A DNA stretch of 9,828 nucleotides from a virus. Taxonomy: Duplodnaviria; Heunggongvirae; Uroviricota; Caudoviricetes. The stretch lies in IMG/VR virus record IMGVR_UViG_2537562191_000038, positions 1 through 9,828 of that record; one strand, given 5' to 3'. The notes beneath the pieces are model-generated. The model was not told the origin of the DNA. It searched no databases and saw only the letters and a program-made list of their open reading frames with translations. Position 1 is the stretch's first letter; each line of letters opens with the position of its first letter. Below, one piece after another: positions 1,098 through 9,828 of the stretch. Position numbers and translations under genes: made by a program.

Positions 1098-1173
1098 GGC
1101 CCTTTAGCTCAGTGGTTAGAGCTGGCGACTCATAATCGCACGGTCACCGGTTCAAGTCCGGTAGGGGCCACCA
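1098..1173 (+). tRNA. tRNA with CAU anticodon, 76 nt with encoded CCA; most similar by memory to the enterobacterial tRNA-Ile2 (lysidine, ileX/ileY type) rather than elongator tRNA-Met
   Basis: Cloverleaf folded by hand: acceptor stem GGCCCTT/AGGGGCC (7 bp, one G-U), D-stem GCTC/GAGC, anticodon stem GGCGA/TCGCA with loop CTCATAA (anticodon CAT), T-stem ACCGG/CCGGT with loop TTCAAGT, discriminator A, CCA at 1171-1173. Ile2 versus Met identity is from recalled similarity to ileX and is not proven. Confidence 0.85.
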
Positions 1174-2714
1174 TATTTGGTTGTAACACGGCGTCTGGCA
1201 CATGCGTCGTTAGCGGTCTGGTGACGTTAAAGGGGTAACCTTTCCCCTAGCTCAGGCAACAAACCAGGTAGCCGGAATGTGCAAGCCCCGTTCATAGCGT
1301 CGGACTGCGGATTCACCATCCTGGCGATTCGGTGTGACAGCCGGGAAGAGTCCGGCGCATTAATCCTGATTTTCTGGTGATGACTCATATCGTTAGGAGT
1401 GATTTGAGTATGCCGATTATATCTGACATTCAGCACGCCTGGGTGGAGTGCTAATGTCTGCATCCCCTCTTGAATCCATGCCAAATTCCCTTAGTGCAGA
1501 ACAAGCTGTACTTGGTGGCTTAATGCTTGATAACTGCCGCTGGGATGAAGTTGCAGATCGTATAGTTGCTGATGATTTTTATACCAGTGCTCATCGTGAA
1601 ATTTTCAGTGAGATGGAGAGGTTATTAAGTCATGGCAAACCGATTGATTTGATAACACTTGCTGAAGCACTTGAACAGAACGGTAAATTAGAACGCGCCG
1701 GTGGTTTTGCGTACCTTGCGGAGATGTCAAAGAACACGCCCAGCGCGGCAAATATTTGTGCTTATGCGGATATCGTTCGTGAACGCGCGGTTGTTCGTGA
1801 AATGATTTCCGTCGCAAATGAAATAGCTGAAGCTGGATATGCGCAGGATGGCAGGGGCAGCAATGAATTGCTGGATATGGCCGAGCGCCGCGTTTTTGAA
1901 ATAGCTGAAAAACGACAAAAGAGCGGTAGTGGTCCAAAAGATATCGCCAGCATTCTCGATGCAACGGTATCTCGCATAGAAGAGTTGTTTCAGCGACCGC
2001 ATGATGGTGTAACGGGGCTTGATACCGGATTTACCGATCTCAATAAGAAGACGGCAGGACTTCAGGCGTCCGATCTCATTATTGTCGCCGCCCGCCCATC
2101 GATGGGGAAGACTACGTTTGCGATGAATCTCGTCGAAAATGCCGCAGTCCGTAACGATAAGCCCGTATTGGTTTTTAGCCTTGAGATGCCGAGCCACCAA
2201 CTGATGATGCGCTCACTGGCTTCTCTTGCACGCGTTGATCAGACTCGTATTCGAACAGGGCAACTTAACGACGAGGATTGGGCGCGGGTTTCTGGCGCAA
2301 TGGGGATTCTGTTGGACAAGCAGAATATTTTTATTGATGACTCAAGCGCCCTGACACCTACAGAGCTTCGTTCCCGCGCTCGTCGTGTTTATAAAGAAAA
2401 TGGTGGTTTGAGCATGATTATGATCGACTACCTGCAACTTATGCGCGTCCCCGAGCTGCAAGATAACCGAACGCTGGAAATTGCCGAGATTTCTCGCTCA
2501 CTGAAGGCTTTGGCGAAGGAATTACAAGTACCGGTGGTGGCATTGTCACAACTTAATCGATCGCTTGAACAGCGTGCGGACAAACGACCGGTAAATTCAG
2601 ATTTACGTGAATCAGGAGCAATTGAGCAGGACGCAGACCTGATCATGTTTCTGTATCGCGACGAAGTTTATCACCCGGATAGCGAAATGAAGGGCATTGC
2701 CGAGGTAATTATCG

Positions 2715-2717
2715 GAA
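2715..2717. repeat. 3-bp target-site duplication (GAA), left copy, flanking IS629 copy 1
   Basis: GAA lies directly outside both IS termini (2715-2717 and 4028-4030). Removing the IS and one GAA restores an uninterrupted DnaB reading frame. Confidence 0.75.
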
Positions 2718-2759
2718 TGAACCGCCCCGGGTTTCCTGGAGAGTGTTTTATCTGTGAAC

Positions 2760-3650
2760 TCAGGCTGCCAGATCATCGTTTCCGATGGAAGCATAATAAG
2801 CTTTTTCTGCTTCTGCCGGAGGAGTATGGCCCAGCCTTCCCAGCAATCGTCGATTGTTATACCAGTCCACCCACGTTAGTGTGGCCAGTTCCACTTCTGC
2901 ACGGTTTTTCCAGCTCTTACGGTGTATTACCTCCGCTTTGTAAAGACCATTGATGCTCTCAGCCATCGCGTTGTCATACGAGTCTCCTGTACTCCCTGTT
3001 GATGCCAGTAATCCGGCTTCTTTTAGTCGCTCCGTATAGGCCAGTGACACATACTGAGAGCCTTTATCGCTGTGATGGATGGTGCCAGACGGACGACGGG
3101 CCCACAACGCCTGCTCCAGCGCATCCAGCACGAATGTCGTTTCCATAGACGATGAGACCCGCCACCCCACGATGTATCCGGCAAACACATCAATGATAAA
3201 CGCCACATAGACGAAGCCCTGCCATGTGCTGACGTAAGTAAAATCAGCCACCCACAGCTGGTCAGGTCGTTCTGCCACGAACTGACGGTTTACGCGGTCG
3301 CCTGCGGCAACGGCTTTCCGGCTGATGGTCGTACGGACCTTTTTACCCCGGAGAACACCGGCAAGTCCCATAACCGCCATGAGACGTGCCACTGTACATC
3401 TGGCCACCCTGATTCCTTCCCGTAACAACTGACGCCAGACTTTACGCACACCGTACACCTGATGATTTTCATCGTATACGCGCTGTATCTCTCTCTTCAG
3501 CCAGTCGTCGTGCTGCGCACGGGCACTGCGTTTATCCGGATGATGTCGCTGTTGCTGACAATGGTAATACGTTGACGGGGCAATATGCAGTTCGCTGCAT
3601 ACCGGTCCGACCCCGTACTGCTCACGCAGCTTATCCAGCAGTGGCATCAT
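2760..3650 (-). CDS. IS629 OrfB (DDE integrase-core transposase), 296 aa from the MMPLLDKL start; the same frame is open upstream to an ATG at 3731 in this copy
   Basis: Translation contains a retroviral-integrase-like DDE core (WVADFTYV..., HHSDKGSQY..., ...[14 protein letters not shown]) and is identical to the partial OrfB of copy 2 over the shared portion. The 323-aa ORF in the track (2760-3731) includes a 27-codon upstream extension created by the two homopolymer differences. Confidence 0.85.
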   Translation of the reverse strand: MMPLLDKLREQYGVGPVCSELHIAPSTYYHCQQQRHHPDKRSARAQHDDWLKREIQRVYDENHQVYGVRKVWRQLLREGIRVARCTVARLMAVMGLAGVLRGKKVRTTISRKAVAAGDRVNRQFVAERPDQLWVADFTYVSTWQGFVYVAFIIDVFAGYIVGWRVSSSMETTFVLDALEQALWARRPSGTIHHSDKGSQYVSLAYTERLKEAGLLASTGSTGDSYDNAMAESINGLYKAEVIHRKSWKNRAEVELATLTWVDWYNNRRLLGRLGHTPPAEAEKAYYASIGNDDLAA

Positions 3651-3727
3651 TTTTCCAGAGGCGGTCGAACTCCGCCTTCGCAAAATAAGCGGAAGCCTGG
3701 CGAAGGATATCGTTACTGCGGCGCAGT

Positions 3728-3973
3728 TCACGATTTTTCACGTTCCAGCTCTTTCAGACGCTGACGTTCAGCGCTGGTGAGCCCACCATCACCGCCCCCG
3801 GTATCCCGCTCATGCTGGCGAACCCAGACACGCAGAGTCTCCGGCGTACAGCCAATCTTTGGGGCAATGGAACAAATTGCCGCCCACTGTGAGTCATATT
3901 CATCCTGACTTTCCAGAACCATACGAATCGCCCGCTGACGGACTTCGGGGGAAAAACGAGTATTTTTAGTCAT
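3728..3973 (-). CDS. IS629 OrfA (helix-turn-helix transposase subunit), shortened variant (81 aa instead of 108 aa in copy 2)
   Basis: Identical to copy-2 OrfA up to ...KELERE, then KS-stop. The plus-strand T-run at 3734-3738 has 5 T where copy 2 has 4 A (8995-8998), shifting the frame. Confidence 0.8.
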
Positions 3974-4000
3974 CCTGTTTACCTCTTTCTCAGGGAGTTT

Positions 4001-4027
4001 AGTCTCCAGGATTTCCGGGGCGGTTCA
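4001..4027. repeat. IS629 left terminal inverted repeat (copy 1)
   Basis: Reverse complement reads TGAACCGCCCCGGAAATCCTGGAGACT, matching the right end at 2718-2744 (TGAACCGCCCCGGGTTTCCTGGAGAGT) at about 22 of 27 positions. Confidence 0.8.
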
Positions 4028-4030
4028 GAA
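4028..4030. repeat. 3-bp target-site duplication (GAA), right copy, flanking IS629 copy 1
   Basis: See left copy at 2715-2717. Confidence 0.75.
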
Positions 4031-4130
4031 AGCAACGAAATGGCCCAATTGGCACGGTGAGATTGGCTTTTAACGGCCAATACTCACGGTTTGATAACTA
4101 TGCTGGTGCTGACTGGCAAGAGGATTATTA

Positions 4131-5129
4131 ATGCAATGGAATGAGGAAAAGCCGATGAACATCCTGATCATTGGGCGAAAATTTGAAGCTATCAGTGATG
4201 TGAAAACATATACGGAAATGTGGGCTTACAACCTGGCCTGCGCCTTTAGTGAGGCAGGGGTAACATTGCAATTCCATCGTCCATATTCCCCCGGCGTCGA
4301 AAGCCCGGAGGATTATGTTGAAGCTGTGTTGACCGCTGCGACCTCGTGTTCTGCGAAAGCCATTTTAGCGCCAGGATTGCGGTATTTTACTACGGTGCCC
4401 AGGGAAATAGGCGTGCAACTGCGTCGTCGATTCACTGGATGGGTAGCCCAGGTATACGACGGTTCTATGCTGGATTCGGCACCAGTCGATATTACTTTTA
4501 CTGTCCGCGATGATACCTGGCGGTACCTGGATAATCCCGGCAGGTTAGAGCGTCATAATCGCTTTAACAAACATGTTGGATGGGCAGCGAATCAGGATCT
4601 GTTCCATCTGGAAACCAAAACAGACGATGTTCTGCGTATTTTTGTAGACCACGCTGCATTTGATGTTAGTGGGTTTGATCACTCCTTAAGTATCCTTATG
4701 AACCTTCAGCGTCTGACCGTTCCGTATGAGGCCAGAACGTTGACCGATGACGGATTGATTACCATTGATCCGGGGAATATATCGGTAACCCCATACAGAC
4801 GGACGCCGGTACCAGCAACCGAATTTGCAGCTGAATTGCGTAAGAGTGACGTGTTTATCGTTACGCATCCCGAAAGCCTTGGATTAACTGTACTTGAGGC
4901 GGCAATGTGCGGGGCGTTGGTATTAACGCCTCCCGATTGTCTTCCGCCAGATCGCCTGGCTTTGGTGAACCATATGGTTATCAAGTCGCGGATTGATTGG
5001 GATGAGGTTATTGCTCGCGTTGATCGCGTGAAAAATGCTGAAAAGGTCCAGTGTCACACCTGGTCGGCAATTGCGGAAAAGATGCTTGAGACGTTTGTCA
5101 CGCAGAAACCGTCGCGCGGTAACGGATAA
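4131..5129 (+). CDS. Glycosyltransferase-like protein, GT-B fold with an EX7E motif (GT4-like), 332 aa, no confident substrate assignment
   Basis: C-terminal segment SDVFIVTHPESLGLTVLEAAMCGALVLTPP matches the retaining GT-B EX7E signature (E-SLGLTVL-E followed by A-x-G). The N-terminus MNILIIGRKF looks like the start of a Rossmann-type domain. ATG at 4131 overlaps the helicase stop (TAATG); an alternative start at ATG 4155 has a GAGGA site 7 nt upstream. No signal peptide or transmembrane segment is evident. Family call is from motif recognition only. Confidence 0.5.
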   Translation: MQWNEEKPMNILIIGRKFEAISDVKTYTEMWAYNLACAFSEAGVTLQFHRPYSPGVESPEDYVEAVLTAATSCSAKAILAPGLRYFTTVPREIGVQLRRRFTGWVAQVYDGSMLDSAPVDITFTVRDDTWRYLDNPGRLERHNRFNKHVGWAANQDLFHLETKTDDVLRIFVDHAAFDVSGFDHSLSILMNLQRLTVPYEARTLTDDGLITIDPGNISVTPYRRTPVPATEFAAELRKSDVFIVTHPESLGLTVLEAAMCGALVLTPPDCLPPDRLALVNHMVIKSRIDWDEVIARVDRVKNAEKVQCHTWSAIAEKMLETFVTQKPSRGNG

Positions 5130-5151
5130 AAAATTGAACCCGTCATAACAG

Positions 5152-5174
5152 AAAAGCCCGAACGCCGGGCTTTT
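5152..5174. terminator. Bidirectional rho-independent terminator between convergent genes
   Basis: AAAA-GCCCG-aacgc-CGGGC-TTTT: a 5-bp GC-rich stem with 5-nt loop, flanked by an A-run upstream and a T-run downstream. It lies between the stop of the plus-strand gene (5129) and the stop of the minus-strand gene (5176). Confidence 0.6.
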
Positions 5175-5175
5175 C

Positions 5176-8322
<3,147 letters not shown>

Positions 8323-8705
8323 TTATCCTTTCCGTTTACGGGCTTCGTTAATTTGTGTCTCAAGAATGCTTCGCGCCTGCGCAGTGGCAGCGGCCTTGTC
8401 CATTCCCTGACTCATGAAAAACTTTATGAGGTTGTTCGCCTGCGTTTGCAGGGCTTTTTTGAGAGCGTCGGCTTCAGCGCGAGCCTGGGCTTCCCTCACC
8501 CGCGATGCTTTTAGTTCGGCATTCTTCCTGTTTGCCGTGGTGCGAGCTTTTTTTAACAACCGGCGAACGTTGTCCGTGGCGCTATCTTTTGCGCGTAGTT
8601 TTTTGCCTAATGCATCCTGAGATTTCAGATACAGCTCATACTCACGCGCAGCTTTAGCCTGATCCGTCGTTGTTGTCCGGTTGCGCGCGAGCGATTTAGC
8701 CAGTT
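8323..8705 (-). pseudogene. 5'-truncated gene for a Lys/Ala/Arg-rich, probably coiled-coil protein (at least 126 C-terminal codons retained); N-terminal part separated or lost by the IS629 copy 2 insertion
   Basis: The reading frame is open on the minus strand from the IS boundary (8705) to the stop at 8323-8325, with no ATG in the first 48 codons (KLAKSLARNRTTTDQAKAAREYELYLKSQDALGKKLRAKDSATDNVRRLLKKARTTANRKNAELKASRVREAQARAEADALKKALQTQANNLIKFFMSQGMDKAAATAQARSILETQINEARKRKG). The 78-aa ORF in the track starts only at an internal TTG. Confidence 0.55.
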
Positions 8706-8759
8706 TGAACCGCCCCGGAAATCCTGGAGACTAAACTCCCTGAGAAAGAGGTAAACAGG

Positions 8760-9086
8760 ATGACTAAAAATACTCGTTTTTCCCCCGAAGTCCGTCAGCG
8801 GGCGATTCGTATGGTTCTGGAAAGTCAGGATGAATATGACTCACAGTGGGCGGCAATTTGTTCCATTGCCCCAAAGATTGGCTGTACGCCGGAGACTCTG
8901 CGTGTCTGGGTTCGCCAGCATGAGCGGGATACCGGGGGCGGTGATGGTGGGCTCACCAGCGCTGAACGTCAGCGTCTGAAAGAGCTGGAACGTGAAAATC
9001 GTGAACTGCGCCGCAGTAACGATATCCTTCGCCAGGCTTCCGCTTATTTTGCGAAGGCGGAGTTCGACCGCCTCTGGAAAAAATGA
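8760..9086 (+). CDS. IS629 OrfA, full length (108 aa)
   Basis: [22 protein letters not shown]...[34 protein letters not shown], with stop TGA at 9084-9086 inside the A6 run and ATGATG region typical of an IS3-family frameshift window. Confidence 0.9.
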
Positions 9087-9828
9087 TGCCACTGCTGGAT
9101 AAGCTGCGTGAGCAGTACGGGGTCGGACCGGTATGCAGCGAACTGCATATTGCCCCGTCAACGTATTACCATTGTCAGCAACAGCGACATCATCCGGATA
9201 AACGCAGTGCCCGTGCGCAGCACGACGACTGGCTGAAGAGAGAGATACAGCGCGTATACGATGAAAATCATCAGGTGTACGGTGTGCGTAAAGTCTGGCG
9301 TCAGTTGTTACGGGAAGGAATCAGGGTGGCCAGATGTACAGTGGCACGTCTCATGGCGGTTATGGGACTTGCCGGTGTTCTCCGGGGTAAAAAGGTCCGT
9401 ACGACCATCAGCCGGAAAGCCGTTGCCGCAGGCGACCGCGTAAACCGTCAGTTCGTGGCAGAACGACCTGACCAGCTGTGGGTGGCTGATTTTACTTACG
9501 TCAGCACATGGCAGGGCTTCGTCTATGTGGCGTTTATCATTGATGTGTTTGCCGGATACATCGTGGGGTGGCGGGTCTCATCGTCTATGGAAACGACATT
9601 CGTGCTGGATGCGCTGGAGCAGGCGTTGTGGGCCCGTCGTCCGTCTGGCACCATCCATCACAGCGATAAAGGCTCTCAGTATGTGTCACTGGCCTATACG
9701 GAGCGACTAAAAGAAGCCGGATTACTGGCATCAACAGGGAGTACAGGCGACTCGTATGACAACGCGATGGCTGAGAGCATCAATGGTCTTTACAAAGCGG
9801 AGGTAATACACCGTAAGAGCTGGAAAAA
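9083..9828 (+). CDS. IS629 OrfB transposase (DDE), 3'-partial at window end
   Basis: Starts ATGATG at 9083 in the -1 frame relative to OrfA. Translation [22 protein letters not shown]... is identical to copy-1 OrfB and is cut by the window edge within ...HRKSWKN. Confidence 0.85.

Follow-up and report, generated by a model that had tools for sequence, protein, structure and literature searches.

Two records describe the closest relative of the elements studied here, an insertion sequence of the IS3 family known from Escherichia coli O157:H7: IS629 in phage VT2-Sakai (AP000422.1) and IS1203v in Stx2 phage II (AP005154.1). These two references have the same sequence. For IS1203v/IS629, the review preprint 10.1101/2023.06.07.543989 places orfB in the -1 phase, names the fusion product OrfAB as the transposase and assigns the shift to the final heptad of the leucine zipper. 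The element and its frameshift-controlled transposase are well described, and copies with a broken reading frame are routinely annotated as pseudogenes. The 'frameshifted' IS1203/IS3-family pseudogenes in RefSeq (for example the kwaA-kwaB copy, SS17 and UMNK88) have a single gain or loss of one base at one of two A runs, and never carry both changes, whereas the copy that we call copy 1 carries both. In-frame orfAB fusions of IS3-family elements, engineered or natural, have a length change (+1 A) in the same slippery run. In one such element, IMG/VR locus L116, seven A residues join orfA and orfB into a 404-aa ORF; the A5 of copy 1 shifts the frame in the opposite direction and joins nothing.

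The window, meaning the whole 9828-base stretch analysed here, is the complete contig AEZU02000009.1 of the contig-level draft genome GCA_000194335.2 of Escherichia coli 4.0522. It encodes an SPFH gene, a tRNA, a P1-type dnaB/ban-like helicase, a glycosyltransferase-like gene and a minus-strand block of structural genes. The window is a piece of a P1-like phage-plasmid. Without its two IS629 insertions, it is collinear with the P1-like plasmid pO111_2 (NC_013370.1) of E. coli O111:H- 11128. Identity to this plasmid is 100% over positions 1-2717 and 98.85%, with zero gaps, over positions 4028-8705. The approximately 53 substitutions all fall between about 6000 and 8700, with the highest density at 6750-7500, and this clustering suggests a mosaic or recombined block of structural genes. 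The 2.7 kb preceding copy 1 in the window and about 2 kb on its right side are free of differences from pO111_2. The coordinates of the features are given in Table 1.

Table 1. Features of the two IS629 copies and of the split helicase gene in the window. Run lengths are given in the orientation of the element, with the letters of the presented strand in brackets where these differ.
Feature	Position	Strand	Basis
Plasmid-borne tRNA, anticodon CAU	1098-1170	+	Rfam tRNA, 64.7 bits
5' part of P1-type dnaB/ban-like helicase gene, split by copy 1	1454..2717	+	100% identical to pO111_2 dnaB
Left target-site duplication GAA (3 bp)	2715..2717		single GAA at the pO111_2 empty site
IS629 copy 1, full length 1310 bp, within the dnaB/ban-like helicase gene	2718..4027	-	near-identity to annotated IS629 AP000422.1
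orfB frame of copy 1: normal 296-aa OrfB from ATG 3650 plus 27-codon upstream extension to GTG 3731	2760..3731	-	rve/DDE domains intact
Private synonymous substitution GGC to GGA (Gly, OrfB)	2984 (vs 9749 in copy 2)	-	copy alignment
ALIL pseudoknot (frameshift stimulator) of copy 1, shorter by one A	3576..3691	-	Rfam RF01497, 115.7 bits
Run 2 of copy 1: A5 (T5; canonical A6), slippery run for programmed -1 frameshifting; the orfB ATG starts with its last A	3650..3654	-	copy alignment
Truncated orfA' of copy 1 (81 aa, ...ELEREKS*), HTH kept, zipper heptads L83/L90/F97 gone	3728..3973	-	ORF and Pfam HTH_Tnp_1
Run 1 of copy 1: A5 (T5; canonical A4), shifts orfA at codon 80	3734..3738	-	copy alignment
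Right target-site duplication GAA (3 bp)	4028..4030		single GAA at the pO111_2 empty site
3' remainder of the split helicase gene, stop TAA 4129-4131	4028..4131	+	collinear with pO111_2
IS629 copy 2, first 1123 of 1310 bp, contig end inside the element	8706..9828	+	1123/1123 identical to IS629 and IS1203v
Canonical orfA of copy 2, 108 aa	8760..9086	+	
Canonical run 1 of copy 2, A4	8995..8998	+	
ALIL pseudoknot of copy 2	9041..9157	+	Rfam RF01497, 121.5 bits
Canonical slippery run A6 of copy 2, then orfA stop TGA; overlaps orfB ATG (9083)	9078..9083	+	

Copy 2 has the textbook arrangement of the IS3 family. All 1123 nucleotides present in the contig are identical to both O157:H7 references. In brief, orfA encodes a 108-aa OrfA and ends in CTC TGG AAA AAA TGA, and the last A of the run is also the A of the orfB start codon, which places orfB in the -1 frame and overlapping the slippery run. 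The conceptual OrfAB protein of this copy matches the NCBIfam IS3 transposase equivalog NF033516 end to end with 366.3 bits. An ALIL pseudoknot follows the slippery run, and those of both copies score above the Rfam gathering score of RF01497, which is 50.

Copy 1 resembles IS629/IS1203v in its length of 1310 bp, its ends, its 3-bp target duplication, its orfA/orfB layout and its ALIL pseudoknot. The alignment blocks with pO111_2, 1-2717 and 4025-8705, meet at the empty site. Copy 1 has intact, imperfect terminal inverted repeats with 5'-TG...CA-3' ends; its left and right repeats match in 13 of 13 terminal bases and in 22 of the first 25. Compared with the annotated IS629 of AP000422.1 there are four differences in 1310 positions, an extra A in run 1, a missing A in run 2, C1043A and A1297C. 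The last of these is in the right inverted repeat (window 4027 / IS position 1297), which reads ...GGGTTTCC... in copy 1 and ...GGTTTTCC... in the Sakai reference. Copy 1 shares A1297C with the most frequent IS629 type in the IMG/VR sample, so this difference is a standing polymorphism rather than a private change. The remaining three separate copy 1 from the reference: A5/A5 instead of A4/A6, and C1043A. No second assembly with the insertion into dnaB was found among complete E. coli genomes, PLSDB plasmids, INPHARED phages and IMG/VR, and none with the junction of copy 2. Copy 1 is thus a strain-specific insertion and probably a recent one.

The two copies were compared directly by aligning the reverse complement of 2718-4027 to 8706-9828. 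This alignment confirmed the lengths of both runs as an earlier note on this DNA had given them, five against four at run 1 and five against six at run 2. That note listed only the two homopolymer runs and missed a third difference, the GGA for GGC at position 2984, where all of the other sampled copies have C (53/53). Set against the IS629/IS1203 reference, as the earlier note had proposed, copy 2 agrees with the reference and copy 1 deviates from it. The 79 nt separating the two runs are identical in both copies, and the net length is therefore unaltered. Since these 79 nt and the remaining element are canonical, gene conversion from a related IS with another frame layout could be rejected. 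Among IS629 copies in the databases, runs 1 and 2 are the two sites at which length varies most often, so the location of the differences is unsurprising.

As written, copy 1 has lost the normal reading of orfA. The 81-aa product predicted in the earlier note stands, compared with 108 aa in copy 2: the orfA frame meets TGA 3730-3728 two codons past run 1 and 26 codons upstream of run 2. The Pfam HTH_Tnp_1 profile of 75 positions is covered from 1 to 66 by this OrfA' and from 1 to 74 by OrfA of copy 2, and the zipper heptad series L76-L83-L90-F97 is cut after L76. If run 2 were reached in the orfA frame, translation would pass from its five A residues into the +1 frame, reading ...LWKNDATAG*, and not into orfB. 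With orfA stopping before the slippery run, and with an A5 run that leads to the +1 frame, OrfAB cannot be made by the normal route. Copy 1 as written is, judged from its reading frames, a non-autonomous element, in which the orfA frame does not extend to the slippery run, and its intact ends could respond only to transposase made elsewhere.

The orfB frame is indeed open 27 codons further upstream, as had been noted, though codon 3731 is GTG and not ATG. Beyond this extension there are 2 more codons and then TGA 3740-3738, directly before run 1. The extension is zipper-coding DNA of orfA read out of frame. When the extended OrfB was searched with the IS3 transposase model NF033516, the extension gave no match and the match began at residue 27. 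A consensus scan of the element for an internal promoter of extended orfB gave no promoter-like site. We also considered a hypothetical -1 fusion at run 1, where the extra A creates the sequence GAA-AAA-T. This fusion scores 340.6 bits with NF033516, 25.7 bits below the 366.3 of the normal OrfAB, and it is without the three zipper heptads L83, L90 and F97. The ALIL pseudoknot of copy 1 lies about 45 nt downstream of run 1, well past the spacing of a few nucleotides required of a frameshift stimulator. In terms of reading frames the two indels do not compensate each other in any of them.

How rare the state of copy 1 is was examined with a 271-nt query holding both runs as they are in copy 1. 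Exact matches were absent from 23,579 places in complete E. coli genomes (6,056 records, 5,426 genomes), from 7,089 places in PLSDB plasmids and from 244 places in phage records. The best matches in complete genomes had one of the two changes each and were annotated as 'frameshifted'. The corresponding query in the state of copy 2 gave exact matches in many records. Among approximately 125 IS629 copies in IMG/VR, a tally that leaves out three RefSeq loci fetched earlier, the states of run 1 and run 2 were A4/A6 in 99 copies, A4/AAAAAG in 22, A4/A5 in 3, and A5/A6 (the UMNK88 genome again), A4/A7 and A4/AAGAAA in one copy each; A5/A5 was found in none. For the single runs we used 95-nt queries centred on each run. 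Among complete E. coli genomes a full match to A5 at run 1 came from one record only, UMNK88, and A5 at run 2 was found in 47 of 5,641 records. An index of 153 billion genes has the 81-aa OrfA' from just two sources, UMNK88 and a draft contig that breaks off 25 nt further on; the extended OrfB, with a V, M or TTG start, is absent. The combination of +A and -A within one IS629 copy is unique. What is observed, then, is that the differences are present in the record, that copy 2 is canonical and that A5/A5 occurs nowhere else.

We lean towards an assembly or base-calling artefact as the cause of the two run-length differences, at somewhat better than an even chance. Under this explanation copy 1 would be an ordinary IS629 that inserted into the helicase gene on a P1-like plasmid in E. 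coli 4.0522. Both run-length differences, and probably the single substitution, would be consensus errors that arose as the draft assembly rebuilt a repeat of 1.3 kb. The true copy 1 would then be a normal IS629 like copy 2, expressing OrfA and, by -1 slippage on the A6 run before UGA, aided by ALIL, also OrfAB. Several observations are consistent with this. Both run changes are of one base in A runs, and the contig terminates within copy 2, where the assembly failed to traverse the IS. The 7.4 kb of unique sequence has 98 homopolymers of at least 4 bases (30 of at least 5) and no indel relative to pO111_2, and all private changes are therefore confined to the 1.3-kb repeat. At the mutation rates of E. 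coli, three mutations in 1.3 kb after the insertion, with none in the adjacent flank, are very unlikely. A defective donor lineage was not found in complete genomes, plasmids or phages. The absence of A5/A5 from every collection searched points the same way, as does the scarcity of A5 at run 1. Length variants of run 2 look several-fold more common in IMG/VR, where 4 of about 125 copies have one, than in complete genomes, where the figure is 47 of 5,641 records; this comparison is only rough because the first is counted per copy and the second per record. The IMG/VR sample is probably rich in draft genomes. A search of the literature for the sequencing method of AEZU02 or E. coli 4.0522 gave nothing usable; the method was presumably 454/Illumina at JCVI.

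The evidence is not all on the side of an artefact. Copy 2, on the same contig and from the same read pool, is free of errors over 1123 nt, which disfavours a generally poor consensus in repeats. Of the three private changes, one is a substitution; this is atypical of homopolymer errors and fits real divergence better. An inherited change from A6 to A5 in the identical run also exists, at the copy beside kwaA-kwaB that is found in unrelated isolates from Switzerland, China and Cambodia and in strain S30.

These three points favour the second explanation, in which copy 1 truly carries the differences and has decayed into a non-autonomous IS629. We regard it as a serious possibility that nevertheless falls short of an even chance. 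Copy 1 would then make an OrfA' of 81 aa with the HTH and with most of the leucine zipper gone, and possibly free OrfB, and no OrfAB. Its ends being intact, the element could be mobile only with OrfAB supplied by other copies, for example copy 2. Homopolymer slippage is the commonest natural indel too, and such IS629 copies routinely carry the annotation 'frameshifted'. Action in trans has a precedent in the excision assay described in 10.1101/2023.06.07.543989, in which OrfAB acts on transposase-less IS1203v/IS629 derivatives. The insertion is however strain-specific with flanks as in pO111_2, which would require either three very fast mutations or a defective donor lineage that existed beforehand. 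No such lineage was seen in complete genomes, plasmids and phages, and A5 at run 1 is known in full elsewhere only from UMNK88 and from the contig end of another draft. Transposases of the IS3 family, such as that of IS911, prefer to act in cis, and mobilisation of a dead donor is therefore less likely. A mutator background was considered as a source of real mutations and dismissed, as the 7.4 kb of flanks have no homopolymer change and the single substitution is a transversion.

The artefact and the decayed copy, both of which had been raised in the earlier note and both of which survive, together take almost all of the probability. The third proposal of that note, that two compensating indels create an alternative way of expressing the transposase, is not supported. 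It would work by one of two routes. The first is -1 slippage on the newly formed GAA-AAA-T run, with OrfA(1-80), a 27-aa linker and OrfB as the product; the second is translation starting at GTG 3731 or TTG 3683, which would yield an OrfB extended at its N terminus. In IS911 the zipper heptads L83, L90 and F97 are needed for multimerisation and for binding of the ends; the role of the leucine zipper is described in 10.1101/2023.06.07.543989. We consider this proposal highly improbable: the orfB frame opens just past run 1 and A-AAA would in principle permit re-pairing of tRNA-Lys in the -1 frame, but no frame is compensated, the linker or extension is out-of-frame orfA that the IS3 transposase model does not match, the fusion has the lower score and lacks the heptads just named, the stimulator is too distant, the element has no promoter-like site, and the zero recurrence of A5/A5 in more than 30,000 copies means that there is no sign of selection. 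That the A5/A5 state is real and yields a zipper-less transposase variant by GAA-AAA-U slippage or from GTG 3731, and so represents a relocated slippery site of the IS3 family, is more improbable still.

Whether the differences in copy 1 stem from an artefact or from decay, the situation is ordinary, with one canonical IS629 and another copy that is frame-broken in the record. The lesson is one of data quality: where repeat copies within a draft contig differ by one base in run length, the reads are needed before the difference is taken as biology. If the differences are real, copy 1 would be one more dead, trans-dependent IS copy, and its relevance would be limited to IS629-based strain typing or to estimates of the number of active copies in E. 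coli 4.0522.

Some further observations concern the variation of the slippery run in other IS629 copies. The 22 IMG/VR copies with AAAAAG in place of AAAAAA (loci L004-L122) make up about 1/6 of those sampled. The change is synonymous in OrfA (Lys-Lys), and AAAAAG is a natural polymorphism of the frameshift site. The copy with the A7 run, locus L116 (minus strand from about 1789), is an IS629 relative approximately 50 substitutions away from the common type, and it is a natural in-frame OrfAB provided that its run length is not erroneous. Loci L003, L130, L131 and L132 are on E. coli chromosomes at about 4.22 Mb and have a fixed IS1203/IS629 copy with an A5 slippery run. The Kiwa defence genes kwaA-kwaB lie immediately upstream of this copy, a further IS3-family fragment adjoins it, and its annotation is that of a frameshifted pseudogene.

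Other observations concern the plasmid. The two IS629 copies are mutually inverted and enclose 4.68 kb of plasmid structural genes, an arrangement that resembles a composite transposon. Inversion between the two copies was ruled out, since the contig is collinear with pO111_2. Copy 2 splits a homologue of the pO111_2 gene WP_001141913.1, and its far end and target duplication are outside the contig. The interrupted helicase gene reads through into copy 1 as an ORF of 499 aa (1454-2953, plus strand) that ends within the IS. It has been deposited as EIH81142.1, 'replicative DNA helicase', and its final 78 residues are encoded by IS629 copy 1. In the index of 153 billion genes, this helicase fusion and a 64-aa call are on record from contig AEZU02000009.1 only. 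The tRNA gene at 1098-1170 has a counterpart in pO111_2 that is annotated as tRNA-Ile and is one among several tRNAs on that P1-like plasmid.
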